From the NCBI GenBank assembly GCA_947306705.1, contig CAMZHD010000001.1, forward strand, positions 1 through 61,371: DNA of 61,371 bases, written 5' to 3'. Position 1 is the first letter of the stretch; every line of letters starts with the position of its first letter. A program made the position numbers and the translations under genes. The notes beneath the pieces were generated by a model. It saw only the letters and a list, made by a program, of their open reading frames with translations, was not told where the DNA came from and did not search any database. This document shows positions 9,340 through 37,123 of this stretch, in pieces. Source of the DNA: an uncultured Bacillales bacterium (lineage in GTDB: Bacteria; Bacillota_I; Bacilli_A; RF39; UBA660).

Positions 9340-10866
9340 TTATTTCAACTTCCTTAAACATTTATTCATGGCACCCATGTGATCAACTAATTCATCTCTT
9401 TCAAGGGCAGATGTTACTCTACCCACTAATTGATCTGTGTTTGGAAAGGAAATGGATTGACCTAAGATAATCTTTATTTTTTGTTGTTCATACATATATT
9501 TTAATAATTCTAATTCTGAAGTAATGACTCTTCCATCTGCTTCTTTATTTTTTAATTCCGTATAATCTAATAATTCAAAGAATCCTGAGTCAGGGATTGT
9601 TCCTTTTACGAAATGAACTCCTGGGATTCCTTCTAATAATTCTCCTGGATTTAAATCAGAAGAAGCATATCTCCTAATATCTTTTTCTACTTCTCTTCTG
9701 ATTCTAGGATCTTCAATGCAGTCTATTCCTTCTACTAATCCTTTTAATAATTCTAATCGATACTTATATTCTTCAATAATTGGATTGAAATAATTCTCAT
9801 ATGCTTGGTATCTCTCTGGAGATGCATTAAAAGCTGCTCCTAAAGCGACTCCTTGTAGTAAAGGAGAAGAATCCATATTTTGGAATATATAATTACGGAT
9901 TCCACGGATAATGGTTTCATCTGCGATTACCATTCCAGATCTTAGGGAAGCTAATCCATAACACTTAGATAATCCTGTAATAGATATTGTATTTCGAAAG
10001 AATTTTTCAAAAGAAGCCATTGGTAGAGATAAATCCTCTCTATCATATGTTAAGTCTCGATAAATCATATCATCGATTACAAATACTCCTTTTTCTAAAC
10101 AAACATCTCCTATTTTTTCTACTAATTCTTTCTTTTTACCATTCATTACTTTTCCTAATGGATTGTGTGGATTTTCATTTAGAAATGCTACAACTCTAGG
10201 AGTGTAATCTAATTTTCCTTCAAATTTCTTTTTTAACTCGGCATTTAACTCATCAATTCTTTTTGATAATTTTTCTGGATTTACATACCAATCATCTTCT
10301 TCGGATAAAGGTAATATTTCTACAGTAGCCCCTGAACTACGTTCTGGAACAAATGTGAATAATCCATAGTTAGGTCCTGTCATTAAAACAACGTCATAGG
10401 GTCTTGCGATTAAATTCATAATAATATTAAATGCTTGTGTCGTAGATACCGTAAAAATAACATTATTCTCATTTAAACCATTTGGGCTTTTGAATCCTTC
10501 TTTTTCTAGATACTCAACGATTCTTTTTCTAGATTCTTCATCTCCTGCGGCTAGTGGATATTCATACATATTATCCATTTCTATTAAGTCAATCATTGCC
10601 TTTTTACAAGGTTCAAAGATTTTTGTCTTCATAGGGCTTCCCCCACCAAGAGATTTCGTTTCCATTCCTCTGATTCTTTCATTTTCTAATTGATAGAGTT
10701 CGTTTCCATAAATAGAAAATGCATCATATATTCTTTTTACTTCTGGAGAAAATGGTTCTTTATCTGCTCGTGCTCCTAGATTTGGTAATCCTCTTACTTT
10801 ATATCTTAAAGATGGATTTTCTTCTAGAAATCTTTCAATTGAATCAATCTTATCCATGTTTCTCAC
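9340..10866 (-). CDS. PLP-dependent aminotransferase, class I/II fold, with a ~100-aa N-terminal extension
   Basis: NPHNPLG motif, DDMIYRDL, and a Schiff-base lysine context ITGLSKCYGLASLRSG. An alternative start is 9 nt downstream. Confidence 0.8.
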   Translation of the reverse strand: MRNMDKIDSIERFLEENPSLRYKVRGLPNLGARADKEPFSPEVKRIYDAFSIYGNELYQLENERIRGMETKSLGGGSPMKTKIFEPCKKAMIDLIEMDNMYEYPLAAGDEESRKRIVEYLEKEGFKSPNGLNENNVIFTVSTTQAFNIIMNLIARPYDVVLMTGPNYGLFTFVPERSSGATVEILPLSEEDDWYVNPEKLSKRIDELNAELKKKFEGKLDYTPRVVAFLNENPHNPLGKVMNGKKKELVEKIGDVCLEKGVFVIDDMIYRDLTYDREDLSLPMASFEKFFRNTISITGLSKCYGLASLRSGMVIADETIIRGIRNYIFQNMDSSPLLQGVALGAAFNASPERYQAYENYFNPIIEEYKYRLELLKGLVEGIDCIEDPRIRREVEKDIRRYASSDLNPGELLEGIPGVHFVKGTIPDSGFFELLDYTELKNKEADGRVITSELELLKYMYEQQKIKIILGQSISFPNTDQLVGRVTSALERDELVDHMGAMNKCLRKLK

Positions 10867-12679: not shown

Positions 12680-12701
12680 GGAACCCCTCATTCGGCTTCC
12701 T

Positions 12702-12735
12702 ATTATACCACAAAATAAAAAGAATTCAAACTATG
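12702..12735 (-). promoter_or_regulatory. Putative sigma-A promoter of the 10-gene operon
   Basis: The minus strand reads TTGAAT-16 nt-TATAAT with a TGG extension (TGGTATAAT, 12710->12702). The -35 lies inside the upstream terminator stem. Confidence 0.5.
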
Positions 12736-12745
12736 AATTCTTTTT
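12711..12745 (-). terminator. Rho-independent terminator of the surface-protein gene
   Basis: 7-bp stem AGAATTC/GAATTCT (12721-12741) with the stop codon in the loop. The minus strand continues TTTTTATTTTG. Confidence 0.6.
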
Positions 12746-15700: not shown

Positions 15701-16522
15701 TTTTTTATATTCAGATAACCATCTCCAATGAAGGGTTCCTTCATAAGGCATATAGGCACTTGTGATGTCTAAGATACCATTATTACTATTTTTTGATTTA
15801 CGGAAATATAATTGATGTAATTTTGTTTCTGTTGGATCAATTTTTGTTTTTACTTTTTTTCCACCAGTTCCTGATTCTACTAATAAGGCATCTACTTTTT
15901 TACCATCTGAATATTTAAAATCATATACTAATAAGACATGTCCATCATAAGAAACAATATCTCCTGGACGTAATACTTTTAAAAAGTTTGATAATTTTTT
16001 GATATTACTTAATTCTAATTTATTTGGGTTGTAGTAGTAAGGATCTTTATCAAGATCTTCATTGTAGTAGTAGATAACATATTCTCCTCTACATCCTACT
16101 TTTGGATCTTCACTACTTGGTTTTAGGGTTTTACATTCTTTCCCTACAACATTTTTTTCAGGATTTCCATATAAATAGAATTTTGCTTCATTGACATAAG
16201 CAGAAGATCCTGAAGGAGTATAGGCTCCTGGTACTCCATCATCTTCATTATTCGATTTGAATCCAAAGGCTTCCATAATCGCATCATTTGAGAATCCACT
16301 ACATACAGAATATCCGTTATCTTGTACTGTTGAATCTTCTGGGTGTCTTAATACTTCATATGTATTCTTTGAGGAATTGTATTGTCTATAAGATCCTCTC
16401 ATATACCATGCTTGCATGGACTGACGAATGGCTTCTTGTGCATCGTTATAAGTAAATTCTTCTGCATGAACTGAGAATGGTATTAATAATAAACATAAAA
16501 ACAAAATAACTTTATTCTTCAT
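12731..16522 (-). CDS. Large cell-surface protein: signal peptide, Cys/His papain-like-looking N-terminal modules, DUF11-like repeat, six Ig-like (Big_3-type) repeats, C-terminal membrane anchor
   Basis: Signal peptide MKNKVILFLCLLLIPFSVHA. YSVCSGFSNDA plus RPGDIVSYDGHVLLVYD form a Cys...His pair. ITYTIRIINNS...ITWKITKLEP is DUF11-like. There are six ~81-95-aa repeats of type TNPTKTxY..GE.L...GG.I.V.Y.....DI.M....VTVSG.D....G.QT..V.Y. The tail is a hydrophobic segment plus KYTSKKNS, with no LPXTG. Confidence 0.8.
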   Translation of the reverse strand: MKNKVILFLCLLLIPFSVHAEEFTYNDAQEAIRQSMQAWYMRGSYRQYNSSKNTYEVLRHPEDSTVQDNGYSVCSGFSNDAIMEAFGFKSNNEDDGVPGAYTPSGSSAYVNEAKFYLYGNPEKNVVGKECKTLKPSSEDPKVGCRGEYVIYYYNEDLDKDPYYYNPNKLELSNIKKLSNFLKVLRPGDIVSYDGHVLLVYDFKYSDGKKVDALLVESGTGGKKVKTKIDPTETKLHQLYFRKSKNSNNGILDITSAYMPYEGTLHWRWLSEYKKFVNDGIVACTTNMCSITRAFYKGSDGKAVFNYDIAWPENQRTSKARLHLPGIFIAKTSSKYDNNSVVLNDPITYTIRIINNSNLSVINGTSKKSTYKEFYVKETLPPEVDYVASSIDDSQKGTYDANTRTITWKITKLEPTQEIVLKYKVKVKNDTANIGKFINAEGKVYVIDKNYALDENYFIKTSTVRHEIINTTSKTDAEYRTCYNNLKSKYSSLSLIQKTYECVYGEDLPFSFTKFGPSNGDYLNKMMSVPSGKASRVQLNTAGDYKIYTDMILNNYWNKLTKVEKSSTEYYYVFPNWRGKNKGTYISGINRANTIASGHFKVGDVLIYSMDKASTKEALRYTKENGLYAFIYLTDANGENGKFVGVNHKDNSYKRNEFTKEYYTNNNLALETYLFDGPASDTNYNYANYQTLFGKDAYVILRPEKVITEITKITVKTNPTKTTYLQKETLDVTGGVITVTKSNGDTEDISMKDSGVSITGYDANKVGDQTINVTYKGKSTSFQVTVNAITITSISVKTNPTKTSYFVGEELSVAGGVIKVTYSDNSTKDISMSNSEVTVSGYNINTAGEQTIQVTYQEKTTSFTVVVTTVELKSIHIGQYPSKIVYQVGESLNLTGGEIIKTYNNGMTSNVDMTDQSVTVTGFDSATAGTKTVTLTVGGKSATMEIIVNSAPDPTEVKTLDSITVYSNPNKTSYLIGEELVLTGGKIKAKYNKTVGETTTIEYEIIDMSNSNVTVSGFSSTEEGNKTITVKYQEKTATFTVTVSKAEVKIQKIEVTQVPSQRNYKQYQENLNLNGGKITVTKSDNSTEEIEMTNSEITVLDFDNSKLGEQTLRVLYKGFETTFKVTIYNQEEEPEEDYDIGNVTSAEIIQQPEITSYVQGDSFDVSGLILKLQYDDGETSNVELADYPGQYTVSGFDSSKVGEQTVTIQFAGQDVQVLVTVRAREGIVAPDTFATKGFISKIIASILLISGFMIMMKYTSKKNS
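12857..14407 (-). repeat. Six tandem coding repeats (~243-285 nt each) encoding Ig-like domains
   Basis: Repeat boundaries counted from the protein: 14407-14162, 14161-13919, 13918-13658, 13657-13385, 13384-13100, 13099-12857. Repeats 1 and 2 are also clearly similar at the DNA level (AAAACAAATCCAACAAAAAC...). Confidence 0.8.
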
Positions 16523-16583: not shown

Positions 16584-16610
16584 CAAAAAAAGAAGTTTAC
16601 ACTTCTTTTT
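16584..16610 (-). terminator. Rho-independent terminator of the 1170-aa gene
   Basis: Stem AGAAGT/ACTTCT with loop TTAC. The minus strand continues TTTTTTTGTTTG. It overlaps the stop codon. Confidence 0.7.
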
Positions 16611-19600
16611 ATGGTATATTTGGACCTACTACTTTGTATGGATCTCGAATTACTAATTGTCTTTGATGGATTGGTTGAACTTCGTCTGGTTTTCCATTGA
16701 ATGCATAGATAGATGCCTCTTCTGATAGACAAGCTGCGATGAAGTTTTCTAATCCTATTTCTTTTACAACTGGGTTTTGAATTTGATAATCTTTTAAGAA
16801 TTCTGTACCAATTGTATCAATTGCTAATCTTCCATCTGGTAAGTATCTATCGACTGCAAATAATGGTCTACTGGCTAGTCCTAAATTTTGTTCATATCCA
16901 CTTTGTCCTGCTCCACATCCAGTAACACTATATAGTTTATTATCAATAACAGATGTTTCAAAGATATGTAAATGTCCCATAACAACTCTATGAACATCAT
17001 CTGCTAAAGACCCTAAACGATCAAAGTGTTTAGACATTCCTCTCGTTGGAGTATCTCCTTTTGCCAATTGGAACAGATGGGCATAAGAAATATTATATCC
17101 ATTGATTGTTTTGCATCCTTGTGGAGATTGAATAATATCTCCTTTTTTATTTACAACAAATTCACTTAATGCAATTTCCATATCAGAACCTATGAAATCA
17201 CTATATTCATCTAAGTATTGTTTTAACATCTTATATAGGTTGATTCCTTTTTTATCCCAATCGGAATTATACTCATGATTTCCTTCTGCTAGATGAATAA
17301 ATTTAAAGATTCTTAGTTTTAATAATTTTGCTCTTATGACTCTTTCATATGGTTTTAATTCTGGAGGTAATTGTAAATCTAATGTATTATAATCCACTCC
17401 ATCTTTTATCGTACATATATTTTGATAGAAGCCTTTTCCGTAATCAATTGCATCGATTGATTTTAAATGATTTAGGATTTTTTCAGATGTTCCTGGATCA
17501 ATTTGAAAATCCTCATACTCTCCCTTAAAGATAAATGGACTTATAACACCAAATGCTTCCCTTAACCATGGTTGTAGTAGTTTTACAATATCCACCATTT
17601 GTTGAGCAACACTCATAGCTCCTACATGTCTATTTTCATTTGCATAAGATTTGTAATTCCATCCATGTACTAAATCTCCATTTCCAAGAATTCCTTTTGG
17701 AGCTTTGTAATCATAGAAGAAATGGTCTAATGCTTTTAATGTATATTCTAGGCGTTCCGTTAGAGATCCTGATTGAATATCATTTAAATAGAATACATCT
17801 ACTTCTTCTAATGGTTTTCCCGTTTTATTAACATGTTCCATGACTTCTCTTGAACGTTTCCAATATGGAATAATTGTCATTTTCTCTCTGGCATCTCCTG
17901 TTACTGTCCAAGAACCAGGATAATTTGGTCTTGTGGAGATTTTATTGATTCTCGCATACGTTGGATCAGATTTTACTTCTCTCATTCCAGGTAATAATTC
18001 TGGATGGAGCAAATATTTAGAGTCATCAATCATTTGTGGAACATTCAAAGCTACTTGATCTCCATAATATGAGATTGATTGCATTCCTTGTCTACCATCT
18101 ACAAATAATTGAGGAATTTCACTTTTATTTTCTAAAGCTCCTGATTGATAGATTCGAATTCTCTTAACGATTCCTTGTGTTGGATCTGCATATTGTGTAT
18201 TAGAAGAAAACATTGGATTCTTCTCAATACTTACTTTCATCGCAGGATCGTCTCCATATTGATCTACTGTGGAATGAACCACTCTAAACATATCATTATC
18301 CTTTAAATATTCTGGTTTAATAAATTTTCCAAGATCTCCTAGAGGTAATCCTTCTGAATAGTTCTTTAGGGCAACACATAATTCTGTTACTCTTGTTTGA
18401 CTTTCTTCATCTGTGAAGAAGTTAGTTACATCTTCTCCACTACGAATTAGATAAGGAATTAATTGTTGTCTAATAATTGGTTTTACCCAATCGTGTGATG
18501 ATTTATTATCTTCTCTTGCTAAGAAGTTATATCCTTTTACTCCTTGTTCTCTTGTATAGATTGTGAACATATCATCGGCAAGATGTTCTTCTTCATCTCC
18601 CATTTGATATACTACTTTGATTCCTGCATCATTTAGTCTTTTTACTAATTTTTTAGCAGCTTTTAATCTTTGATCAAGAGTTTCATATTTTGGATCAATT
18701 AATCCTCTTCTTGCGACTTGATTATGATAGAATGTGGAATAAATTAATCCTTGAATATACATCGTATCAACATGATCTGCAATTGCCATGTCGATTACAT
18801 TTTGTATATCTTCTTCACTATTATAAATATTTCCAATATTAGCTCCTGCCATAAAGGAAATCAATGGAAATCCTTTTTCTGCTGGTTCTACTGGTGTTAA
18901 ATGAGTTAGTGGTTTTCTTTTCTTTCTGCTTTCTTCAATGAATGTTGCACCAATACTATCATAGGTACGAACATTTAATCCTGCCGTTGGATGCATTGAA
19001 AAATCATTTGAGCCTGATCGATTGACTTTAATATATCTTTCTACATTTTTCTTAATAAATTGATAAGATTCTTGTAGGGATTCTGCATGTGGTAGAAAAG
19101 CAATATCAATTGGGAATGTATTTGGTTTTTGTTCTCTACCAATGAATCCTTCATTTTCTAATACTCTTTCTAATTTTGCTAAACCTGCATCCGTAGAAAT
19201 ATCAATTCCAGGTAAGAAATGAACTGCTGAGTGACCTTTTTTATTGATTAAAGACTTATATCCCTCATATAGATCATCCCTACATAATATGTGATGCCCA
19301 CCATTCTTTTTAATGTCTTCTGAAAGATATTTTACTAAATCATCATAGTTTTTATCTTTTGCGAGATACTCTGTCATAGACTTTGCGATAGATTCAAATA
19401 GAGCCATATTCTCGTTACTTAATTTTCCCTCTACTTGTTTCATTAATAATTTATAATGTTTTTCTGGATCGTATTTTTTAGATCTTGCGAATTGTTCTAA
19501 TTTTGCGACATCAAAGCATTCTTCTTTGTCCCTCATCGCTCTATGTGGCAAGTCATGATCTTTTGCGATGATTTCATCATAATACTCTGGACATCTTCTA

Positions 19601-20121
19601 TAATCTCGTAGTGCTTTCACCCTAATTCTTTTTCTTTCAACACCCTGTGTATCATTCTCTTGACGATAAACTTGTATAATGTAACTTTCATATTTAGCTG
19701 GATCTAATCCTTGAATAATAGATTTATCATCTAATCCAAATAAAGTGGTTATATAGTCTTCTTTTTTATCACATGCTTGCATCAACAATGTATTGTAGAT
19801 TGCATTTGCGATATTATTTGTTTTTCTATCAAAAAATAATAAAGATGGTTTCACTCTACTATTAGCAGCTGCATATCCTGCTTGTGAAGCCATCACATAA
19901 AAACCACCTACTTGACTAATCATAATAGGTGCATGTTTTGCTTTTTGTAAATCTCTAAAAGCAATACTTAAATCATTGAAATCATCAGATGAACATAATT
20001 TAATTCTTTCATCATTTAGTTTTAGACTTGTCTCTCCATACATATCTAAAAATTCTTTAATTCTTTTTTCTTTAAAACTCTTCTTTTTTTCGGCACTAAA
20101 TTTAACTTCGTCTTTAACCAT
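16609..20121 (-). CDS. Large cytoplasmic protein with a C-terminal calcineurin-like metallophosphoesterase core and an unassigned N-terminal ~750 aa
   Basis: Metallophosphoesterase motifs in order: GNGDLVHGW (GDxxH/D-like), AEGNHEYN (GNHE), VVMGHLH (GHxH). Motif I looks degenerate (LNDIQSG). Start set to the ATG at 20121, 8 nt after GGAGGG. The track ORF starts at a GTG at 20127. Confidence 0.55.
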   Translation of the reverse strand: MVKDEVKFSAEKKKSFKEKRIKEFLDMYGETSLKLNDERIKLCSSDDFNDLSIAFRDLQKAKHAPIMISQVGGFYVMASQAGYAAANSRVKPSLLFFDRKTNNIANAIYNTLLMQACDKKEDYITTLFGLDDKSIIQGLDPAKYESYIIQVYRQENDTQGVERKRIRVKALRDYRRCPEYYDEIIAKDHDLPHRAMRDKEECFDVAKLEQFARSKKYDPEKHYKLLMKQVEGKLSNENMALFESIAKSMTEYLAKDKNYDDLVKYLSEDIKKNGGHHILCRDDLYEGYKSLINKKGHSAVHFLPGIDISTDAGLAKLERVLENEGFIGREQKPNTFPIDIAFLPHAESLQESYQFIKKNVERYIKVNRSGSNDFSMHPTAGLNVRTYDSIGATFIEESRKKRKPLTHLTPVEPAEKGFPLISFMAGANIGNIYNSEEDIQNVIDMAIADHVDTMYIQGLIYSTFYHNQVARRGLIDPKYETLDQRLKAAKKLVKRLNDAGIKVVYQMGDEEEHLADDMFTIYTREQGVKGYNFLAREDNKSSHDWVKPIIRQQLIPYLIRSGEDVTNFFTDEESQTRVTELCVALKNYSEGLPLGDLGKFIKPEYLKDNDMFRVVHSTVDQYGDDPAMKVSIEKNPMFSSNTQYADPTQGIVKRIRIYQSGALENKSEIPQLFVDGRQGMQSISYYGDQVALNVPQMIDDSKYLLHPELLPGMREVKSDPTYARINKISTRPNYPGSWTVTGDAREKMTIIPYWKRSREVMEHVNKTGKPLEEVDVFYLNDIQSGSLTERLEYTLKALDHFFYDYKAPKGILGNGDLVHGWNYKSYANENRHVGAMSVAQQMVDIVKLLQPWLREAFGVISPFIFKGEYEDFQIDPGTSEKILNHLKSIDAIDYGKGFYQNICTIKDGVDYNTLDLQLPPELKPYERVIRAKLLKLRIFKFIHLAEGNHEYNSDWDKKGINLYKMLKQYLDEYSDFIGSDMEIALSEFVVNKKGDIIQSPQGCKTINGYNISYAHLFQLAKGDTPTRGMSKHFDRLGSLADDVHRVVMGHLHIFETSVIDNKLYSVTGCGAGQSGYEQNLGLASRPLFAVDRYLPDGRLAIDTIGTEFLKDYQIQNPVVKEIGLENFIAACLSEEASIYAFNGKPDEVQPIHQRQLVIRDPYKVVGPNIP

Positions 20122-20220
20122 TTCCACTACCCTCCATAGTATATTATCTCATACTTAAAAGAACAGTACAAATAAATATTACTTAACTCTTTAAGATTTA
20201 ATATAACCTAGTTTTATCAA

Positions 20221-25068: not shown

Positions 25069-26661
25069 ATGGAGAGAATCCTTTATAAAGATGAAACATG
25101 TGAACTAGTATTGTTTATCAATTCTACTTCTATTACTGGATATAAAATAATGGATCAAGAAATGTTTCCTATTACGCAAAAAGATTTAGATGTTTTTTCT
25201 TTTCTAAGAAATATTGATAATCTTCCATCTTTCTTTTATAGAAAAGGGATTCCTACTACAATGTATCGTGGGAAGGGAATCCGTTTAGGAGAAGAAAGAA
25301 AATTAACGTTTGGACAAAGAATAATTCTTTGTACAATCATTGGTCTTACTCTTTTAGTGGGGCCTAGAGAAATTCCTGTAGTTGCGAAAGCAAATGATTT
25401 TATTCAGTTTATGAAAGCTTCACAGGATTATTCTGTAGAAGGTGTATTGGCTTCTATTCAAGCATCTCCTTATTTAACACAAGAGGAAAAGAATTTCTTA
25501 AAGAATGAAGATTTAATAGAAGATGTTTTAAAAACTGTTAATACGGATTTATCCACAAAAGCATTATTCTTAAGTTATATTCATCACATCGATATTCAAT
25601 CTTATGGAGCAGAAGATCCACAATATAATAGTGCTTATGGGTATTACAATCTATCTACTCCTAGTACAATGTTTATGAAAGACTATACAGGTTTAAATGA
25701 CAAAGAAGATACTCTTGCACATGAATATATTCATTTACTTCAAGATACTTCAGGATATAATTTGATCATTGAAGCTTGTGCTGAAATAGTATCTACTGAA
25801 TATTATCATGTACCGGAGTCTTACTATCCTTTCCAAGTACAATTATTAAAAGTATTGATGGAAACCATTGGTTCTGATGTTGTTTGGAATTATAGTTTTA
25901 CAGGAGATTTTTCAGGAATTGAAGAAAGAGTAAAACCTCATCTTAGTGAGGAAGAATATCAAGACTTCTTAGATTGTTTAACATTTGATTATGATAATGC
26001 TTCTGCTAATTATCCTAAATATGATCGATTAAGAGAACTGATCAGTAAACTATATAAGAGTATTTATCATAAAGACATCGAGGAGGATTTAATAATTCAG
26101 TTAATTAATCATTATGATTTTACTTTGAATCGTTCTTACTTTAATCCTAGACAAACAAATGATTCTTACTATTTAAATTATGAATTAGGAGAATATGAAA
26201 CATTAAGTTATGAAGATGCCATTAATAGAGGAATGATTCTCGTTTTTGCAACCCAAAGAACTCCTATTAGTATGGATGAAGCTATGGAAATTGTGAGAAA
26301 TAGGAATTATGCTATTCATCGTGATATTGATAATAATGGGCATCAAGTTAGTTTCCTTAGAACATCTAGTGATGGAGTTCAAATGATTGTATCTGTCATT
26401 ATAGATGGAGAACGATATGAGAATATCGACATTGATGAATTAGCTAGAAGAGGAATTCTAACCATTCATTATTCTATGGTAAAACAAAAGAAGTTAACGT
26501 ATGAAGAATATAGAGATCATAATTATTGGGAAGATGCAGAAATACGTATCATGCATGCTGGAGATACTACTTTAAATGAAGATAATGTTGTAGGATTTGT
26601 TCCTATGAAAATACTTCTTCCTTCTATCGAAGAACGTTATCAAACTCAAAATCAAAAATAA
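25069..26661 (+). CDS. Membrane-anchored protein with an HExxH motif (putative zinc metallopeptidase)
   Basis: One TM segment (IILCTIIGLTLLVGP). AHEYIHLLQD followed by EACAE. Nothing else is assignable. Confidence 0.4.
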   Translation: MERILYKDETCELVLFINSTSITGYKIMDQEMFPITQKDLDVFSFLRNIDNLPSFFYRKGIPTTMYRGKGIRLGEERKLTFGQRIILCTIIGLTLLVGPREIPVVAKANDFIQFMKASQDYSVEGVLASIQASPYLTQEEKNFLKNEDLIEDVLKTVNTDLSTKALFLSYIHHIDIQSYGAEDPQYNSAYGYYNLSTPSTMFMKDYTGLNDKEDTLAHEYIHLLQDTSGYNLIIEACAEIVSTEYYHVPESYYPFQVQLLKVLMETIGSDVVWNYSFTGDFSGIEERVKPHLSEEEYQDFLDCLTFDYDNASANYPKYDRLRELISKLYKSIYHKDIEEDLIIQLINHYDFTLNRSYFNPRQTNDSYYLNYELGEYETLSYEDAINRGMILVFATQRTPISMDEAMEIVRNRNYAIHRDIDNNGHQVSFLRTSSDGVQMIVSVIIDGERYENIDIDELARRGILTIHYSMVKQKKLTYEEYRDHNYWEDAEIRIMHAGDTTLNEDNVVGFVPMKILLPSIEERYQTQNQK

Positions 26662-26690
26662 AATATCCACAAGTTTTGTGGATATTTTTT
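26655..26690. terminator. Bidirectional terminator; near-identical copy at 28805-28840
   Basis: AAAAATAAAATATCCACAAGTTTTGTGGATATTTTTT. Stem ATATCCACA/TGTGGATAT. Confidence 0.75.
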
Positions 26691-27681
26691 AATTTGGGCA
26701 ATGAGAAAGGTCTATCTCTACTATTCGATAAATCCTTGTAGCTTGGTCTTCTATTTTATCTTCTATATGAAATGGAAAGTAATGTTCTTGTCGACATGCT
26801 TCATTCTCTTCAACAGTGTCTGCATCCCTTATACAATCATGATATTCGTGATCTTCAGAGTAAACAACTAATTGATGTTCTGGATCTTTTCCTAAAAATG
26901 CATTTAAACTATTCTGTGTTTCTTCATCTTCTGAAAGATAATATACACTCTTATCATATTCTGCAAAAGTCATTCCTCTTTCAAAAGGGAAAGTTCTTTC
27001 TTCTTCATGATCCTTGTCACACATGACTGTACGAATGACAAATGTTCCTTCTTGTCTTACTTCTACTTCTGCAGTCACAGTAAGAGAAAGTTTTTCATAA
27101 GCATAAATACTTAGTGGAATCATCCATACTGTCAATAATAGATACATTATTTCTTTTCTACCACTACTGATTCCAATAGAGATAATTACAAATCCTAATA
27201 CTAACAACAAAATAATTATTGCTCTTGTATTTGTCTTTGGATTTTCTTCGTTCGATAAGTTTAATTCCATATTATTGTTTTCTACGTAAACACCATTTAC
27301 AAAATCATCATCATCTACTGGAGATTGATAAACAATTTTAATAAAGAATTCTTTTTCTTCATTTGCTTTAATAATTCTACTATTATCTTCTGATAAATAT
27401 TCATATTTTATAAAGTCTCCTGATCCAAACTCTTTTGCATTAGCAATTTCATATGGAGTATTCGTATTATTCTTAATTATAATTTTATATTTAGCATAAT
27501 CTTCTACATCAACAAACTTTAAGAAGAAATCAATTTTTAATCCTTCAAATTGGATTGGTTTTGTTTCTCCTGCTTTATCAGATTTTTCTACTAATATTGC
27601 TTCTTTAATTTCGACATTTTCTTTTGCGAATACAAAGGCTGGGAATAATAATATTACTAACAATAATAATACTTTTTTCAT
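26689..27681 (-). CDS. Envelope protein, paralog A: signal peptide, beta-rich domain, internal NPKTN sorting-like signal, TM hairpin, C-terminal Cys/His/acidic domain
   Basis: Signal peptide MKKVLLLLVILLFPAFVFA. NPKTN, a hydrophobic stretch and GRKE occupy residues 147-177. A second signal-like segment MYLLLTVWMIPLSIYA/YEK follows. It is a paralog of 27704-28762. Confidence 0.6.
   Translation of the reverse strand: MKKVLLLLVILLFPAFVFAKENVEIKEAILVEKSDKAGETKPIQFEGLKIDFFLKFVDVEDYAKYKIIIKNNTNTPYEIANAKEFGSGDFIKYEYLSEDNSRIIKANEEKEFFIKIVYQSPVDDDDFVNGVYVENNNMELNLSNEENPKTNTRAIIILLLVLGFVIISIGISSGRKEIMYLLLTVWMIPLSIYAYEKLSLTVTAEVEVRQEGTFVIRTVMCDKDHEEERTFPFERGMTFAEYDKSVYYLSEDEETQNSLNAFLGKDPEHQLVVYSEDHEYHDCIRDADTVEENEACRQEHYFPFHIEDKIEDQATRIYRIVEIDLSHCPN
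27229..27243 (-). other. Internal NPKTN motif (sortase-B-type sorting-signal look-alike)
   Basis: The minus strand reads AATCCAAAGACAAAT = N-P-K-T-N, followed by 21 hydrophobic residues and SSGRKE. Confidence 0.4.
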
Positions 27682-27703: not shown

Positions 27704-28762
27704 CTAAGTCAGAGAACATTTTACTCCCGTATTATAATAATCACCAATATCTTGTGTTTGAATTTCATCTTTATAAGATACTACGTGAGAATTTGACAAA
27801 ACACAATTTCTATATTCTCGATCGGCTTCTGCTTGTTGTTCCACTGCTTGAGCACGTTCTTCCTCTGTCATATCATCACTAAATGATGGATATACGATAG
27901 GATCAACACATTCACTAAAATCTATCGCATTAAAAAATTCTAGGTAATCAGATTCTGTAGCAGATGTATTTGGTTTATCTTTTATCATTGACAATGAAGT
28001 TTCAATTCTATTTTTCATTTCTTCAGTAAGTGTATTATTATCTTGGTAACTATTATCTAATTCTTCCCATGTCATTCCTTTAATAAATGGAAAGTCAGTA
28101 GGTTCACAGTCAATAGATCCTTGCGTAGAACCAATCGTTCCGACTTTTACGACTGTTTCCATTTCTAGTGTTATTTTTTCATAAGCAAAGATTGTCGTTG
28201 GGATTAAAATGAATAACGCAATCAAAAGAACCATTGCACTTTTATTTGTTGTTAAAACTCCAACTGTTAACAAAATAAATGCGATCATTAATATAACTAA
28301 TAAGACTGTCTTTGTAGAAGTTTTAGGATTATCTCCATTAGATAGGTCAATATTCATGGCAATTTCTTCTTCATATTTTCCATCTACAAGATCTGTATCT
28401 TCAATTTCGTTACAATTGATTGTAATATAGGCTTGTTTTTCTTTCCCTGCTTTTACGATATTCCCCTCTTCTTGATTAAACTCTACTGAATATGTTACGT
28501 ATTTTCCATTTTTTTGATTTTGTACACTTGTTATTTCATAATCCTTGTTTGAATCATTTTGAATCGTAACAACATATTTCATAGTTCCGCCTTCTATTGA
28601 AAACCGAATCATTGATTTGATTTTTAATCCTTCAAAACTGATTGGTTCAATTTCTGTGGAATTCCCTTCTACTAATTCGATGTTTTTAATATATACATCT
28701 TCTTTTGCGAATACAAAGGTTGGGAATAATAATATTATTAATAAAAATACTATCTTTTTCAT
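27704..28762 (-). CDS. Envelope protein, paralog B (same architecture as 26689-27681)
   Basis: Signal peptide MKKIVFLLIILLFPTFVFA. NPKTS, a hydrophobic stretch and TTNKS come next, then MVLLIALFILIPTTIFA/YEK. The RBS and start region is identical to paralog A (TTTTTTCATAAGTCACCTCTATT on the plus strand). Confidence 0.6.
   Translation of the reverse strand: MKKIVFLLIILLFPTFVFAKEDVYIKNIELVEGNSTEIEPISFEGLKIKSMIRFSIEGGTMKYVVTIQNDSNKDYEITSVQNQKNGKYVTYSVEFNQEEGNIVKAGKEKQAYITINCNEIEDTDLVDGKYEEEIAMNIDLSNGDNPKTSTKTVLLVILMIAFILLTVGVLTTNKSAMVLLIALFILIPTTIFAYEKITLEMETVVKVGTIGSTQGSIDCEPTDFPFIKGMTWEELDNSYQDNNTLTEEMKNRIETSLSMIKDKPNTSATESDYLEFFNAIDFSECVDPIVYPSFSDDMTEEERAQAVEQQAEADREYRNCVLSNSHVVSYKDEIQTQDIGDYYNTGVKCSLT
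28316..28330 (-). other. Internal NPKTS motif (sortase-B-type sorting-signal look-alike)
   Basis: Residues 145-149 of paralog B, in the same position as NPKTN in paralog A. Confidence 0.4.
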
Positions 28763-31505: not shown

Positions 31506-32021
31506 TTATTTTTCTTTCTTTACTTTAATAGATTTAAATAGTTCTTGGACTTTTTTATCATTTACGACATCTGCTACTACAACTTCTTCTTTTGTATCAA
31601 GTCGAGATACAGATACGAAGATTGCTTTTGCCATATCATTTTCATCCTCTAATAAGATATTTAAGTAAGCTCCACTTGTATATTCTCCATACATGTAAGC
31701 TTCATAGTCTCCAAACTTATACTCATTAAAGTATTTCTTTTCAGAACGAGATTTTTTTAGATTATCATAGGTAGCTTTACGAGATTCAATATAATACATT
31801 TCAAACTCTAAATCTAATTCTTCATTCTTAAATGTAATCTCTGTTGTCTTTCCACTATGATCTTCTTCTGGTTCTGTATAAACTTCTTTTTCTGGATATG
31901 AGAATGTTGTGGTATATCCAAATTCTTTATCAGATAATTTGATTTCTTTTAAATTACTCTTTCCACATCCTGTTACTAAAACTAATAATAGTACTAGTAT
32001 TAAAACAATTTTCTTTTTCAT
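31506..32021 (-). CDS. Lipoprotein (171 aa), last gene of the fibre/HINT operon
   Basis: MKKKIVLILVLLLVLVTGCGKS lipobox. Start set to the internal ATG at 32021, because the longer track ORF (to 32102) would overlap the upstream gene by 47 nt. Confidence 0.6.
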   Translation of the reverse strand: MKKKIVLILVLLLVLVTGCGKSNLKEIKLSDKEFGYTTTFSYPEKEVYTEPEEDHSGKTTEITFKNEELDLEFEMYYIESRKATYDNLKKSRSEKKYFNEYKFGDYEAYMYGEYTSGAYLNILLEDENDMAKAIFVSVSRLDTKEEVVVADVVNDKKVQELFKSIKVKKEK

Positions 32022-32055
32022 ATAGTCCTTCCTTTCGCACTTATTATAACACATT

Positions 32056-34317
32056 TTATTGTTTTTCAAAATGCATTCCTGTCCAAACTTGTACTTTTTC
32101 ATGTGAATGGTAATATTTGTGCTCAGAAGTAGAGTACCAAGTTCCTTCTGGAAGTTCGAAAGTGTCTCCTTCTTTGATGTATTCTTTCTCTGTTAGATTA
32201 ATGGATACTGGCCAATAACGAGAACCTTCTCTTTCAATTGGTTTTTGTAACATAAAGTCACTGGTAATCCATAGACTGATATAATCTTTGAAATCAATTA
32301 GAGATACTCCTTTATTTAATAGGACTGCTAATTCTCCTGCTCTGAAACCTTTATACATGTAATATGGTAATACATCTTGTAGGTATTCATAGTCTAATTC
32401 TTCATTGGTTTTTCCTTGCCATTTCATTTGATCATTAAATTCATATAAATTCGTAATATCCGTAAATGCATCTGTTGTGACAAAATCATCTGAAATAATA
32501 TTCCAATAACGAGTAGAAGCTACAAAGTAGAAGTTTACTTCTTCTTTGACGGTTTCTATCTTTGTTACTTGTACCGTTTTTAGATTATTGTTTTCTACTT
32601 TTGCGATATTTGTTCCTATATGGAATTCTTCACTATTATCAGCAGATACGAATCTATGAAGATCTTCACTAAAGAAAGCATGACTTCCTACGATTTTGAT
32701 TTCTGAATTATCTGAGAATGTAATCTTTGTATATTCTTTTGTTTTCTTTTCTTTTTCAATCCAGATTGGATATTCTCTTGTAAGAGTTCCTGTATCATAA
32801 CTCCATACCATTAATAAGTCATCATACGTAATATCTTCAACATTCTTTGTTGTATTGTCTCCTAATAGAACTTTCGTTCCTTCTACTAAACAACCATTTC
32901 CTGTTTGACCGGTAATGACTAAGTCTCCTGTAACATTTGGAACACTTAATCGTCCATTATTTGCATTATAGGTATATTGTGTATTTGATAGAGTATTTCC
33001 TCCCATCGTAATGTTTAAATTATTTGGACGGGTTCTATTGTTGTTTGCAGTAATTGTAGTTGTATAGGTTTGTCCATAATCAACTGTATAGTTACCATTT
33101 GGACCTCCTTGTGTAATATTAACTCTTACATTCATGGTCCAAATATAGTTTCTTGTCTCACTTTGTGCAGAGGAACTATTTCCACTAGTATCATAGGTTG
33201 TTACCTTGAAATAATAATTTCCTTCTTGTAATCCTGTTACTAGATATTCTTGTTCATCTGACTGGGTTTGATTCGTTGATACTAATGTAGCATTGTTGTT
33301 TACAACTCTATATGTTTCAATGACACTATGATCTACTCCAATATCATCAGATGCATTAAAGGTTACATTAACAGATCCTCTTGTTGTCTGCATAGTTCCT
33401 ACAACATTAGATACTGTTGGAGGGGTTACATCTACTAATGTACTATCCGTTGTAACATAAGCTATTACTACACCCATACTAGTTCTTGAAGAATCAGATG
33501 GTTCTAAGTAGATGTTCATACTTTGCCTTTCGGCTGCAAAACGGGCTTCTGATTTCACTTTTAAATAAATATTATAAGTTTCTGTTCCATTCGCAAGAAT
33601 GGTATATTCTTCTAATGGTTGATTATTACTATCTACTAAATAAAAATTATCATTGCTTACTGTAATATGAAAATTCTTAGGTGCTTCATATGTATTCATA
33701 ACAGTTGCGGCAATCGCGATGGATTGATTTGTATTTTTCAAATCTCCTGAGATATTCTTAGGAATGGATCCTAATAATCTTCCTGTTGGTTCTCCTTGTT
33801 CTAATTCAAATTCTGTATCTCCTGATACATTGAAATTACCTGAATTGTTAGGAGTCATTATTATTTTCAATGTGAATGTTACTGAATCTAGAGTTGGGAT
33901 AACATCCCCTGCTTCTATTCCCTCTAATTCGTAACTAACTTCCATATCCTCATTATTAATGGTAGTTAAAGAGGGATTAAAATGAGTTTCATTAAATGTA
34001 TAATCATAGAATGTATTATTACTAATTGTAATGGTATACAATCCATAATATTCATCTTGTAGAGCTTCTTCTGTTGGTGCTACATTAAAATTCATATTAA
34101 AATGAATAGAATGCCCATCTATTGTTGGATTCTCTTGATTCAATAAGTTCTTATAATCTGTTAAGATTGCACTGGAAATTACAATTTCTCCATTTTTAGT
34201 AAACGTACTTTGTCCTTCAATTCTTGCTTGTGCATTATAGACTGCATATCCTACAGAAGTAAATGCAAAAAGAAGAAGTGCAATCAAAGTAACGATGATA
34301 CTTTCCTTACTTTTCAT
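32056..34317 (-). CDS. 753-aa secreted multidomain protein: TasA-type N-terminal signal and domain, Ig/Fn3-like modules, HINT (intein-like) domain, unknown 138-aa C-terminal module
   Basis: The N-terminus ...SVGYAVYNAQARIEGQSTFTK parallels that of the 183-aa protein at 36550-37101. The Fn3-like region is VTPPTVSNV...GLQEGNYYFKVTTYDTSGNSS. HINT motifs are GNG-CLVEGTKVLLGD (block A, Cys476) and KIVGSHAFFS (block B). Confidence 0.65.
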   Translation of the reverse strand: MKSKESIIVTLIALLLFAFTSVGYAVYNAQARIEGQSTFTKNGEIVISSAILTDYKNLLNQENPTIDGHSIHFNMNFNVAPTEEALQDEYYGLYTITISNNTFYDYTFNETHFNPSLTTINNEDMEVSYELEGIEAGDVIPTLDSVTFTLKIIMTPNNSGNFNVSGDTEFELEQGEPTGRLLGSIPKNISGDLKNTNQSIAIAATVMNTYEAPKNFHITVSNDNFYLVDSNNQPLEEYTILANGTETYNIYLKVKSEARFAAERQSMNIYLEPSDSSRTSMGVVIAYVTTDSTLVDVTPPTVSNVVGTMQTTRGSVNVTFNASDDIGVDHSVIETYRVVNNNATLVSTNQTQSDEQEYLVTGLQEGNYYFKVTTYDTSGNSSSAQSETRNYIWTMNVRVNITQGGPNGNYTVDYGQTYTTTITANNNRTRPNNLNITMGGNTLSNTQYTYNANNGRLSVPNVTGDLVITGQTGNGCLVEGTKVLLGDNTTKNVEDITYDDLLMVWSYDTGTLTREYPIWIEKEKKTKEYTKITFSDNSEIKIVGSHAFFSEDLHRFVSADNSEEFHIGTNIAKVENNNLKTVQVTKIETVKEEVNFYFVASTRYWNIISDDFVTTDAFTDITNLYEFNDQMKWQGKTNEELDYEYLQDVLPYYMYKGFRAGELAVLLNKGVSLIDFKDYISLWITSDFMLQKPIEREGSRYWPVSINLTEKEYIKEGDTFELPEGTWYSTSEHKYYHSHEKVQVWTGMHFEKQ
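32473..32892 (-). other. HINT / bacterial intein-like autoprocessing domain (residues ~476-615 of the 753-aa protein)
   Basis: Cys476 (codon 32890-32892, TGT) in CLVEGTKVLLGDNTTKNVEDITYDDL. A TxxH-like block is present (GSHAFF). A hydrophobic block F/G-like segment VNFYFVASTRYWNIISDDFVTT is present, but there is no terminal HN plus Cys/Ser/Thr. Confidence 0.6.
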
Positions 34318-35357
34318 CTTCTAGCACTCCTTCTATATTTTCTTTTTTCTAAGACATATTTCCAAGCTGTATTATCATTGAATAAGATAAATATACTTCT
34401 GTCGTCTTTTTGATAACAGTTAATTGGCATTCTTATTTCACTATGAGCATCAATTAATTCTTCGAAGCTTTCTACTTTGATTAAATTATAATCATCTAAT
34501 CTAGGTTCTTCTTCTACGTTAACAATGATACTATCATAGGTTGTTAAGATTTTCTTTAATTCTAATTCATATTGATTATTCATCTTATATATCTTTTTAT
34601 TATGGATTAGTAACCATATAAAGAAGGCACCTGCGATAAATAATAGAACTCCCATTATTTTCCATAATAGATATCTTATATTATGATCTTCAAATGTTTC
34701 TGTAAATGATTTTACTTGATTATCAATATCACTATCGATAGATGCCTCTATTGCTAATTCTGACAATGGTAATTTTAATATCAAATCACTATCTACTTTT
34801 GTTTTTAGATCATCATTTTCTAACTTATTCTTTACTTTTAAATATACTTTTAGAACTCCTTCTGATTGTAGTCCTAATGTCTTTTTAAAACTATTTAGCA
34901 TTTCATTGTATTGATTATAATCAATCTTTACATTTTGATGAATTGCAAAGTTTTCTTTTTGATTGAATCTTTCTTGTTTGACTTTTGTTACTTCATATTC
35001 TTTTGTCCAGTAATTGCCTGAATTACTATCAGCTTTATTGGCTTCGATCTTCGCAATTACTTGATATTCTACTTCTCCATCTACTGGTTGATCAAAATAG
35101 ATGTTATAAGAATAATCCGCATCAATATAATCAATTAAGCTTGTGATATAGGTTTTTCCTTTTTCAATAAAAGGTTCTTCAAAGAATGCATTCTCTTTTA
35201 AATATACTTTGTAGTCAATATCATTATCTTCTTTATATTTTAAAGATAGTGTTTTCTTATTTTGAAAACCTGTATATAGGAATAAGACACCTAAGAAAAA
35301 GCATACAAGAAAAGATGACAAGATAATTATTTGTCTTTTCGTATACGAATTTTTCAT
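34314..35357 (-). CDS. Two-TM membrane protein with a ~200-aa extracytoplasmic domain (unknown function), operon member
   Basis: TM segments at residues ~12-32 and ~235-255. Translationally coupled to both neighbours (4-nt overlaps). Confidence 0.5.
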   Translation of the reverse strand: MKNSYTKRQIIILSSFLVCFFLGVLFLYTGFQNKKTLSLKYKEDNDIDYKVYLKENAFFEEPFIEKGKTYITSLIDYIDADYSYNIYFDQPVDGEVEYQVIAKIEANKADSNSGNYWTKEYEVTKVKQERFNQKENFAIHQNVKIDYNQYNEMLNSFKKTLGLQSEGVLKVYLKVKNKLENDDLKTKVDSDLILKLPLSELAIEASIDSDIDNQVKSFTETFEDHNIRYLLWKIMGVLLFIAGAFFIWLLIHNKKIYKMNNQYELELKKILTTYDSIIVNVEEEPRLDDYNLIKVESFEELIDAHSEIRMPINCYQKDDRSIFILFNDNTAWKYVLEKRKYRRSARR

Positions 35358-36484
35358 CCACTCGTCTCCTCTCCAATAAATACATCATGGAACCATAGAG
35401 TTGGATAACCAATATACTTCACTGAGTACTTAACGACTCCTAATACCTCTTCATCTTTGACTTTAAAGGAGTCAGGGGTTTTATTGGCATCTCCTTTAGT
35501 TTGAAACTGATAATGACTGTCTATTTTTTCTATATTCATTACTCTATGAGTAACAATTATTCCTTCTTTTTTGAAAACTAATATTTCTCCAATTTCTACA
35601 TTCTTAGCAGCTTTCTTTTGATAGACAACTGCATCTCCTCTACAATACGTTGGTTTCATGGAATTAGAACCAATCGAAATCATTGTATGAGTGAAGAATC
35701 CAGATACTAGGAATACTAGTATCAATAGAAATGTAAATGCTGGAATATAAAATAATCTTCTTATGGTTTGTTTTTGATATATTTCTTGTTTATCTTGGTA
35801 GTGACTTAATCTTCCTACAAAGAAATAAACTCCATAAGGTAATGCAATATTCGCAACTGCATATAAATAGTTTCCTAAACTAGGAATAATTGGTAGTACC
35901 AATTCATATAAGTATAAAGATAGTTTAAATACAATACTTGGTTTATAACTAACTTTATAAGTGATATAGGAACAAACGGCTTCTCTACTTATAATTGGTA
36001 ATACAACGGTTGTTGCAAATATAAATAGAGCTTCATGATCTGCTAGATTCAAACCATTTATTTCTAGGATAATATTTAAACATGATAAAACGAAAGCATA
36101 CAAAAGTACAGGTAATTTTTGATGTGGTGTATTACGACAGATAATATATCGTACAATTTCTTCCAAAACAATTACAATGGTTCCCAATCCAATGATTCTT
36201 AATAAATAATCTCCATTGAATGAGAAAACTGTATGATGGAATCCTGTTAATAATCCAATCATATAGATTGTTAATAAATATACCAAGATACTAGATATTA
36301 CAATTCTAGTAACGATTTTTTGAGTATAATTATTATCTTTCATCATTCCAAATCTAGCAATAAAGTATATAGATATTAAAATGATGGATAAATCTAATAG
36401 ATAAGGATTTCGTATGATTTGAGTAAATACTATCATACAAATAAATAATAATAATTCTAAAAAATAGATTTCCCATTTTTTCAT
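35354..36484 (-). CDS. SipW-type (ER/archaeal-type, Ser-His) signal peptidase I fused to an N-terminal ~260-aa polytopic membrane domain
   Basis: The C-terminal domain has SIGSNSMKPTYCRGDAVVY (catalytic Ser in SMxP) and GIIVTHRV (His). About 8 hydrophobic segments precede it. Confidence 0.7.
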   Translation of the reverse strand: MKKWEIYFLELLLFICMIVFTQIIRNPYLLDLSIILISIYFIARFGMMKDNNYTQKIVTRIVISSILVYLLTIYMIGLLTGFHHTVFSFNGDYLLRIIGLGTIVIVLEEIVRYIICRNTPHQKLPVLLYAFVLSCLNIILEINGLNLADHEALFIFATTVVLPIISREAVCSYITYKVSYKPSIVFKLSLYLYELVLPIIPSLGNYLYAVANIALPYGVYFFVGRLSHYQDKQEIYQKQTIRRLFYIPAFTFLLILVFLVSGFFTHTMISIGSNSMKPTYCRGDAVVYQKKAAKNVEIGEILVFKKEGIIVTHRVMNIEKIDSHYQFQTKGDANKTPDSFKVKDEEVLGVVKYSVKYIGYPTLWFHDVFIGEETSG

Positions 36485-36549: not shown

Positions 36550-37101
36550 TTAATTTGTTTTTGCTTCGTAATCTAAACCAACTGTAAGAGCTACTGTTAC
36601 ATCATCAGAAGGTAAATCTGTTGCCTCTTCTGGTAAAAGGTATTCAACATGTACTTTTACAGTATGAGAAGCGTTTCCAGCTAAAGCGATTGCTAAGCCA
36701 TCAGTTGTTTCTGTATAGTCAGTTCCATTATAAGTTACTGTATAATCGATAAACTTCTTTTGTGCATCTGTTAATCCAGATAAAGTAATTTTCTTTAAAA
36801 GAGCATCGATTGTACCAAAGTTTTTAGCATTTACACTGAATTCATATTCGTCTCCAGGTTTTTCTAAGGTAACTTCATAAGTAATTAAAGTGTTACCTAC
36901 ATCCTTTGTGGTTGCAGTAATAGTAGTATTTTCATTAAATGTAGTAGTATCAAAATGTACATCCCAAACTGCTTTTGAGAATGTAGCACTACCATTAATA
37001 TTTAAAGTTTGTGCATATACTGCGTAACCAATTGACATAACTAATACAGCTGCTGCTAAAACAATCATAACAACATTTTGAACTAAATTTTCTTTTCTCA
37101 T
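36550..37101 (-). CDS. TasA/camelysin-like small secreted subunit (183 aa)
   Basis: N-terminal anchor and signal ...VLVMSIGYAVYAQTLNINGSATFSK. The beta-rich body includes TLEKPGDEYEFSVNAKNFGTIDALL, which from memory resembles the TasA L.PGD...F...N.G segment. Start set to the ATG at 37101, after GGAGGAG. Confidence 0.55.
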   Translation of the reverse strand: MRKENLVQNVVMIVLAAAVLVMSIGYAVYAQTLNINGSATFSKAVWDVHFDTTTFNENTTITATTKDVGNTLITYEVTLEKPGDEYEFSVNAKNFGTIDALLKKITLSGLTDAQKKFIDYTVTYNGTDYTETTDGLAIALAGNASHTVKVHVEYLLPEEATDLPSDDVTVALTVGLDYEAKTN

Positions 37102-37123
37102 ATTCTCCTCCAATCTTATCTTT

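Follow-up and report, generated by a model that had tools for sequence, protein, structure and literature searches.

A candidate C-terminal autoprocessing cassette of Hint domain and partner module in a putative fibre operon of an uncultured Bacillales bacterium

When a large surface protein ends in an intein-like domain followed by a short module, is this end cut off, used to transfer the protein, or simply kept? This question is raised by a stretch of 61,371 nucleotides from an uncultured Bacillales bacterium (assembly GCA_947306705.1, contig CAMZHD010000001.1, positions 1 to 61,371; hereafter the window), whose minus strand encodes a protein of 753 amino acids (aa) at the end of a putative fibre operon. 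The initial annotation, made from the nucleotide sequence without database searches, assigned a HINT domain and an additional C-terminal module to this protein, read both as parts of a polymorphic toxin system with the adjacent lipoprotein as immunity protein, and offered Hedgehog-type thioester chemistry as an alternative. The answer favoured here, to which we give a probability of about 0.6, is that residues 476-753 constitute a portable C-terminal autoprocessing cassette, in which a Hint domain of the bacterial intein-like (BIL) type is joined to an obligate, Hog-like partner module and would cut or transfer at the Gly475-Cys476 bond.

A Hint domain and its obligate partner

The large protein combines a SipW-type N-terminus, a fibre-subunit-like domain, an Ig/fn3-like stalk and the C-terminal cassette of Hint domain and module. 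The gene and the parts of it that form the cassette are the following:

32056..34317, minus strand: gene of the large protein, 753 aa, complete, from the list of open reading frames (ORFs)
32893..32907, minus strand: short, variable linker QTGNG, ending at the putative scissile bond between Gly475 and Cys476, from the translation
32470..32892, minus strand: Hint (BIL-like) domain, residues 476-616, from structure prediction, Foldseek and a profile aligned to BIL2
32890-32892, minus strand: Cys476, the Cys1 equivalent and start of the domain
32680-32682, minus strand: block-B His546, from the alignment to BIL2
32470-32472, minus strand: Asp616, at the position of the terminal Asn of inteins, from the alignment to BIL2
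32239..32469, minus strand: first half of the module, residues 617-693, an extended segment (NLYxF...W) and then three helices
32059..32238, minus strand: second half of the module, residues 694-753, a small beta subdomain resembling Flg_new or InlB B-repeats

Judged by sequence models, the case for a Hint domain is suggestive only. Cys476, the sole cysteine of the protein, is the start of four curated Hint/intein model matches, every one of which scores under its cut-off (Pfam Hint, E=0.015; Hom_end_hint; Intein_splicing; TIGR01445 intein_Nterm, 23.7 bits versus a cut-off of 24.5). The fold was confirmed by structure prediction. An AlphaFold2 (AF2) model of residues 460-753, computed from an alignment of 115 homologues, has a mean predicted local distance difference test score (pLDDT) of 92.8 and a predicted template modelling score (pTM) of 0.88, and its residues 476-616 are all-beta with a pLDDT of 95-98 throughout the domain. 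A Foldseek search of the PDB returned 60 matches at E<=1e-3, and 50 of 50 among the matches listed are Hint domains. The best is BIL2 from the BUBL1 locus of Tetrahymena (E=4e-9, target template modelling (TM) score 0.80), and further matches include many mini-inteins, the Clostridium thermocellum BIL (2lwy) and the Hedgehog structures 1at0 and 6tyy. The BIL2 sequence is also matched over the whole domain by the Hint-region family profile (E=1.8e-6). According to this alignment, whose numbering was checked against the C1A/N143A crystal construct, Cys476 corresponds to Cys1, His546 to the block-B His, Thr615 to the penultimate His and Asp616 to the terminal Asn143; a block-G-like strand is present, with block G still similar to that of BIL2 and inteins. 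In the predicted model, residues 476-616 (476-615 in the initial annotation) are thus confirmed as a genuine Hint fold, and the beta-fold, the nucleophile at the N-terminus and the block-B His place the domain in the Hint superfamily.

Residues 468-488 read ...ITGQTGNG up to the putative scissile bond and CLVEGTKVLLGD... beyond it (translation of 32470..32907), residues 540-550 are IKIVGSHAFFS, and residues 595-620 run ...NFYFVASTRYWNIISDDFVTTD and then AFTD. The catalytic pair predicted within these motifs, the Cys after GNG and the His of the IVGSHAFF block, is borne out by the alignment, since Cys476 and His546 are each present in 239 of the 239 complete Hint domains of the family, a mark of purifying selection. 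Lys491 and Asp500 are equally invariant (both 239/239), Asp536 is kept in 238 of the domains and Glu521 in 95%. Glu521 occupies Hint position 46, which would be the index of the Hedgehog general base Asp46. Around the Cys, the -1 residue varies in the family (T, G, S, I, V, A) and +2 is Leu; by sequence, the domain lacks the classical Thr of TxxH and the block-F Asp/His.

At the other end of the domain, the HN and following nucleophile that the initial annotation found missing are replaced in the BIL2 alignment by Thr615-Asp616 and Ala617. TTD closes the Hint domain in 171 of 195 relatives, the conservation of Asp616 is about 88-93%, and of about 200 relatives, 124 have Gly and 21 have Ala at +1. 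A domain with Thr-Asp in place of His-Asn and with Gly or Ala at +1 is incapable of canonical splicing, and a true (class 1) intein has been rejected. With nucleophile and block-B His intact and the HN and +1 nucleophile missing, the domain can at most cleave or transfer at its N-terminal junction, as had been proposed.

The Hint domain is followed by its obligate partner, residues 617-753. This module, initially given as 138 aa, comprises 137 aa and was rightly called unassigned: it has no Pfam or NCBIfam match in the window protein, no Pfam family in 32 family members, and no significant fold neighbour in the PDB or BFVD (best E 0.15). Its three helices carry an invariant LPYYMYKGxRAxE, the invariant residues of the module being Y625, F627, P651, Y653, G657 and R659, and its beta subdomain follows the pattern EG..Y.LP...WY.TS.NK.Y.PG..V.V..G..F. 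Modelled alone by AF2 from a 32-sequence alignment, the module again shows the extended N-terminal segment, three helices and small beta subdomain (pLDDT 87), but its first 20 or so residues reach a pLDDT of only 56-74, versus 91-95 when the Hint domain is included. This drop, together with the joint pTM of 0.88, suggests that the module packs on the Hint domain and that the two are physically integrated.

As to relatives of the module, its profile picks up nine Flg_new repeats in the unrelated SLH protein P0237, and hhalign aligns it to Flg_new with E=2e-4 and a probability of 47%. BFVD proteins named 'internalin B' match the beta subdomain with a probability of 0.92 but E=0.2, and weak PDB matches of the module are to ubiquitin-like beta-grasp proteins. 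The resemblance of its last 50 or so residues to an Flg_new / InlB B-repeat unit is concordant, not significant at the fold level, and is treated as a lead, not a finding.

The family of the large protein becomes visible by profile search, a single-sequence search having given 10 fragmentary matches. At least 317 homologues of 720-810 aa were found in this way, none of them named in any source. An exhaustive HMMER search with the module profile against 1.84 billion representative proteins (E<=1e-3) retrieved the module in 226 proteins/clusters. Hidden Markov models (HMMs) of the N-terminal region, Hint domain and module were then mapped on 143 further proteins among the best 150 of these 226, and the 98 proteins with at least 150 residues upstream of the module were regarded as informative. 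In all 98 the Hint domain directly precedes the module, with a gap of 1-9 residues and one outlier of 64, and in 91 of them no more than 10 residues separate the module from the C-terminus. A mobile intein is excluded, since none of the 98 carries the module without Hint and the flanks are not one conserved host protein.

A fibre-type N-terminal region was found in 67 of 89 long proteins, and in 16 of 17 other long proteins the cassette is attached to a different N-terminal region (the exception, P0237, is an Flg_new/SLH protein with a repeat-only match). The passengers include proteins with type IV pilin-like N-termini (KGFTLLE; N_methyl 25.3 bits for P0178), BspA-type leucine-rich repeat (LRR) arrays (P0195, P0268), Flg_new arrays on a lipoprotein (P0243) and proteins with plain Sec signals. 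Passenger types have no sequence in common in the 90 residues that lead up to the Cys, which include Ser-rich, Thr/Lys-rich and Pro/Ile-repeat linkers and an LRR cap; similarity therefore starts exactly at the Cys. Mean column conservation in the fibre-type family is 0.68 for the Hint domain and 0.59 for the module, versus 0.45-0.55 for the N-terminal segments. The pair of Hint domain and module is a portable cassette.

One protein of this set, P0175 (728 aa), contains two Hint types in tandem: a canonical BIL-A-like Hint, ending in ...NILVHN before a V, lies about 60 residues upstream of the cassette Cys.

Proposed autoprocessing and its alternatives

In the favoured reading, Sec export and SipW processing would come first and autoprocessing afterwards. 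Judging from the conserved catalytic residues and the fold, Cys476 and block-B His546 would carry out an N-to-S acyl shift at Gly475-Cys476, and a nucleophile would then resolve the thioester and part the passenger, a fibre-subunit-like head on an Ig/fn3 stalk, from the Hint domain and module. The partner module would take the role of the sterol/adduct-recognition region of Hedgehog 'Hog' domains and be needed for, or direct, the resolution of the thioester. The outcome could be plain release, or the passenger C-terminus could be moved to an acceptor such as the wall, a glycan or a lysine amine; plain hydrolytic release and transfer are equally possible. BILs lack a +1 nucleophile, and cleavage is their dominant reaction (PMC4031507), and Hog domains consist of Hint and a sterol or adduct recognition region (SRR/ARR; PMC2362128).

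Hedgehog/Hog domains (1at0, 6tyy) share the fold of the cassette Hint (Foldseek E about 5e-7, TM 0.72-0.77) and its layout, in which a passenger is followed by a Cys-initiated Hint and by a conserved non-Hint C-terminal region that always occurs together with Hint (PMC2362128). Likewise, no C-terminal Asn chemistry is needed, and the secreted passengers are diverse, as in the Hog proteins of nematodes. However, the 137-aa module has no sequence or fold similarity to SRR/ARR, the cassette lacks the Gly-Cys-Phe motif (-1 variable, +2 Leu), and its family is bacterial. By this analogy, the cassette would resemble a Hog domain in architecture only, with no homology of the partner regions.

The BIL domains, of which types A and B were reportedly described by Amitai et al. 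in 2003, include the best match of the cassette Hint by both sequence and fold, BIL2 (6y75/6tmm). As in BILs, the Hint domain is part of a secreted, non-housekeeping protein, contains Cys1 and the block-B His and lacks the +1 nucleophile, which is the defining BIL trait (PMC4031507). The missing +1 nucleophile also fits type A in particular (PMC4031507), but the domain ends in Thr-Asp, not His-Asn. The profile check suggested in the initial annotation gave a divided result: Hint matches, though under its cut-off as stated above; Hint_2 (PF13403, BIL type B) matches weakly in 6 of 32 members (best E=0.032), block G similarity being kept; and PT-HINT (PF07591) yields no match at E<=1 in the window protein and none at E<=0.1 in the 32 members. 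An obligate 137-aa partner and a fixed position at the protein end are, moreover, not described for BILs. The arrangement recalls PT-HINT in that a large secreted or surface protein has its Hint domain close to the C-terminus and immediately ahead of the final domain; in the cassette, however, this final domain is conserved, not variable, the same module occurs on different passengers, and the loci compared have no conserved downstream immunity gene. By its sequence features the Hint domain is BIL-like under the operational definition (non-intein context, no +1 nucleophile) and stands outside type A, Hint_2, PT-HINT and true inteins. No description of the cassette or its module was found in the literature on SipW with Hint, DUF5305, surface-protein BILs or Hedgehog-like bacterial autoprocessing.

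Several points weigh against the proposed autoprocessing. We infer cleavage by cassette proteins from sequence and predicted structure, and every curated Hint model scores under its cut-off on the window protein. The module lacks detectable similarity to Hedgehog SRR or any ligand-binding family in Pfam, the PDB and BFVD, so that its 'adduct-recognition' role would be one by architectural analogy only. In addition, the conservation of Asp616 hints at a chemistry of the C-terminal junction that the favoured mechanism leaves unused.

A more specific version, which we put forward tentatively and with the odds against it, sees Hint domain and module as a bacterial counterpart of Hog that acts as a single-turnover transferase: an acceptor docked by the module would resolve the Cys476 thioester, and the passenger would thereby be anchored covalently. 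The aromatic-rich module with its invariant Arg and Glu would dock the acceptor. Candidate acceptors are amines or hydroxyls of peptidoglycan or teichoic acid, a lysine in a fibre subunit, and glycans or proteins of the host or of a partner cell; the passenger could be a type IV pilin-like protein, an LRR adhesin or a subunit at the base or tip of a fibre. Covalent transfer has a precedent in this branch of the superfamily, because BIL2 forms an isopeptide when a lysine resolves its thioester (PMC8616854). A wall component or a fibre-subunit amine would be an attractive target of transfer, as the cassette replaces the usual C-terminal anchors and the organism appears to have peptidoglycan. A wall-less (Mollicutes-like) host with lipid anchoring was also considered and was rejected because the window encodes LdcA-like and RipC-like peptidoglycan enzymes; from these genes, a cell wall is probably present.

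We consider it unlikely that the cassette undergoes BIL-type double processing or splicing, with the Hint domain excised and the passenger ligated to the module as a true C-extein. Asp616 would have to cyclise like Asn and cut the Hint-module bond, after which the freed alpha-amine of Gly/Ala617 would attack the Cys476 thioester. This route would make use of the exact alignment of Asp616 with the terminal Asn143 of BIL2, of the widely kept TTD and of the mostly following Gly with its unhindered amine, and the Flg_new-like beta subdomain would suit a mature adhesin. Inteins with a C-terminal Asp also splice, as Amitai et al. in 2004 are said to have reported. Type A BILs splice by the same aminolysis (PMC4031507). 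Yet Thr stands where a penultimate His would assist cyclisation, and a Hint-less allele with the passenger fused straight to the module was found in 0 of the 98 informative proteins. Unlike an independent extein, the module start appears to depend on the Hint domain for folding in the AF2 models, and the pTM of 0.88 speaks for one rigid unit.

Less probable still is a silent Hint, that is, a protein that keeps its full length and uses Hint domain and module as a C-terminal adhesive or wall-binding head. The sub-threshold Hint models and the loss of the classical TxxH Thr and of the block-F Asp/His would agree with this, and non-catalytic Hint folds exist elsewhere; the AXH module model matches 31 of 32 members weakly. 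An inactive domain is, however, hard to reconcile with a Cys1 and block-B His that are both kept in 239 of 239 domains despite divergence to about 30-40% identity, or with a Cys that always stands exactly where passenger similarity ends.

For the toxin hypothesis, the gene downstream of the large protein has to be considered:

31506..32021, minus strand: lipoprotein gene, 171 aa, ATG at 32021, lipobox LVTGC, ribosome-binding site AAGGAAGGA, from the ORF list

This gene exists as annotated, but L010 and L011, relatives with 69-71% identity, are the only loci compared in which the large gene is followed by a homologue of it; none of the others contains one. The gene after the large protein varies by lineage and can be infC, ligA, a parA-like gene, rny or another housekeeping gene. 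A perfect extended -10-like element, TGtTATAAT (32043..32051, minus strand), lies between the stop of the large gene, 5 nt away, and the lipoprotein ATG, 21 nt away, and suggests that the lipoprotein gene has its own promoter. The lipoprotein gene does not belong to the system but is a neighbour specific to this lineage.

A polymorphic toxin, in which a pre-toxin HINT frees a 138-aa C-terminal toxin and the lipoprotein confers immunity, could be read from the position of the Hint domain directly before an unassigned C-terminal domain with a small gene behind it, and a type VII EssC gene elsewhere in the window makes inter-bacterial antagonism plausible, but this is by far the least credible reading, because the module is better conserved than the N-terminal segments (the reverse of the polymorphic-toxin pattern), is never swapped for another C-terminus and always coupled to Hint (98/98), matches no toxin family or fold (Pfam, PDB, BFVD) and occurs in a family without PT-HINT matches, while the genes downstream are unrelated between loci, the lipoprotein is restricted to the nearest relatives and the -10-like element suggests a separate promoter. 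The proposed external-nucleophile (Hedgehog-type) resolution of the thioester, the other idea of the initial annotation, fits the architecture better.

The putative fibre operon and its surroundings

The remaining parts of the large protein and the other genes of the operon are the following:

36550..37113, minus strand: small putative fibre subunit, 187 aa, first gene of the set, homologous to the N1 domain of the large protein
35354..36484, minus strand: SipW/archaeal-type signal peptidase I, TIGR02228 with 87.5 bits versus a cut-off of 51.85, residues 252-362
34314..35357, minus strand: DUF5305 (TafG-like) membrane protein, PF17231 with 52.3 bits versus a cut-off of 29
34237..34317, minus strand: hydrophobic signal segment of the large protein, residues 1-27 (...FTSVGYAVYNA), boundary approximate
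33793..34236, minus strand: N1 domain of the large protein, about residues 28-175, homologous to the entire small fibre subunit
32908..33792, minus strand: stalk of the large protein with Ig-like/fn3-like domains, residues 176-470, from weak Pfam matches and fn3 in homologues

On the minus strand, the gene order is thus small subunit, SipW-type signal peptidase I, DUF5305 protein and large Hint protein. Most related loci with sufficient flanking sequence show the same four genes, down to about 30-40% identity, and the first three genes are sometimes divergently oriented. The related loci are from gut/rumen metagenome-assembled genomes of uncultured Erysipelotrichaceae, Bacilli and Firmicutes. 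A scan for promoters and terminators in the operon was uninformative, with 46 promoter-like sites versus 41 expected. The signal peptidase is about twice as long as usual, since a polytopic N-terminal extension of about 245 aa without family match precedes the S26 domain (246-362); the long form (374-402 aa) is kept in all related loci.

TasA fibre loci pair a SipW-type peptidase with a subunit gene, and TapA is a minor or accessory subunit of the TasA system. In archaeal Tafi loci, a signal peptidase and DUF5305 (TafG) are encoded beside pilin genes, assembly is by strand donation like that of bundling pili, and TafG has been proposed as a helper of the signal peptidase (PMC12337348). As in TasA/Abp/Tafi systems, the gene of a small secreted subunit is accompanied in the window by genes for a SipW/archaeal-type signal peptidase I and DUF5305 (PMC12337348), and the label 'fibre operon' is reasonable because this combination is the signature of Tafi loci. 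The copy of the small-subunit domain at the N-terminus of the large protein is a parallel to accessory subunits. On the other hand, the small subunit is only weakly like archaeal AbpX (sub-threshold, E=0.17-0.27), the PDB search gave no significant similarity to solved TasA or Abp structures, and no description of a Hint cassette in TasA/Abp/Tafi-type systems was found in the literature searched.

The signal segment is common to the large protein and the small subunit: the N-termini of the 187-aa subunit (fib187) and of the large-protein orthologue in L002 are 53% identical over 34 aa, and the G-Y-A motif of the segment is near-invariant in the family. Beyond the signal, the small-subunit ORFs of the window and of L001-L007 are matched by positions 1-170 of the family N-terminal HMM (E=1e-6 to 3e-14). 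In the stalk, residues 316-388 give weak Pfam matches to DUF4998, Y_Y_Y, K319L-like PKD and Ig_J, and fn3 (PF00041) is found in the precomputed annotation of many homologues. The lone PDB match of the full protein by phmmer, to a 'probable RNA-binding protein' (3gku, residues 120-236, E=1.7e-4), has nothing to support it and is likely spurious.

A second set of small subunit, SipW and DUF5305 genes lies beside the first in L003 (11125..14475), L004 (10810..14377) and L008 (12690..18013). The large protein of this second set has no Hint cassette, which makes the cassette an optional part of such fibre loci; in L008 it is a 749-aa Flg_new protein. The window further encodes tandem paralogues of 330 and 352 aa with ordinary Sec signals (26689..27681 and 27704..28762, both minus strand), whose N-terminal domain is related to N1 (HMM E=2.7e-6; 25-26% to L001/L003 by tblastn); homologues of the 352-aa paralogue occur near the cassette in L001, L045 and L046. 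Another class of cassette proteins, of about 1110 aa (L023-L026, L030, L031), has a partly duplicated N-terminal region and is encoded outside such a set: the neighbours are housekeeping genes (glmS, ffh, ftsY, rnj, rny, recA), and neither SipW nor DUF5305 occurs within about 2.3-10 kb on either side.

Among the other genes of the window, one encodes the ATPase EssC of Firmicute-type type VII secretion (51472..56049, minus strand; TIGR03928, E=1e-299). A 1263-aa surface protein (12731..16522, minus strand) contains six Big_3 repeats and a weak match to the GBS104 tip-pilin Ig domain and ends in a hydrophobic segment and a KK tail (…APDTFATKGFISKIIASILLISGFMIMMKYTSKKNS) without an LPXTG-like motif; as read from its sequence, this C-terminus may be a variant sorting signal or a simple transmembrane anchor. 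Three further ORFs, 16609..20127 (minus strand, 1172 aa), 10850..12691 (minus strand, 613 aa) and 25069..26661 (plus strand, 530 aa), were matched by no Pfam or NCBIfam model at the thresholds applied.

Implications of the cassette

Hint domains are known from inteins, from Hedgehog/Hog proteins and from scattered bacterial BIL or pre-toxin domains, and a thioester-directing partner region beside Hint has so far been characterised in eukaryotic Hog proteins only. If the autoprocessing reading is correct, the cassette would be a bacterial family that follows the logic of Hog, with at least 226 clusters at 50% identity. It is common in gut and rumen Firmicutes related to Erysipelotrichaceae and has gone unannotated, its partner module being without a Pfam or NCBIfam model. 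Should Hint domain and module act by hydrolysis only, they would still represent a new and cleanly delimited BIL subfamily, and a compact self-cleaving or ligating tag for protein engineering is a possible use.

The cassette terminates proteins of at least three surface systems, namely SipW/TasA-like fibres, type IV pilin-like proteins and LRR/Flg_new adhesins, and this occurrence makes it a candidate for a general maturation or anchoring signal of Gram-positive surface proteins. If the transferase version were true, it would provide a sortase- and ATP-independent route to covalent anchoring or 'covalent adhesion' that is common to unrelated fibre systems of gut Firmicutes.

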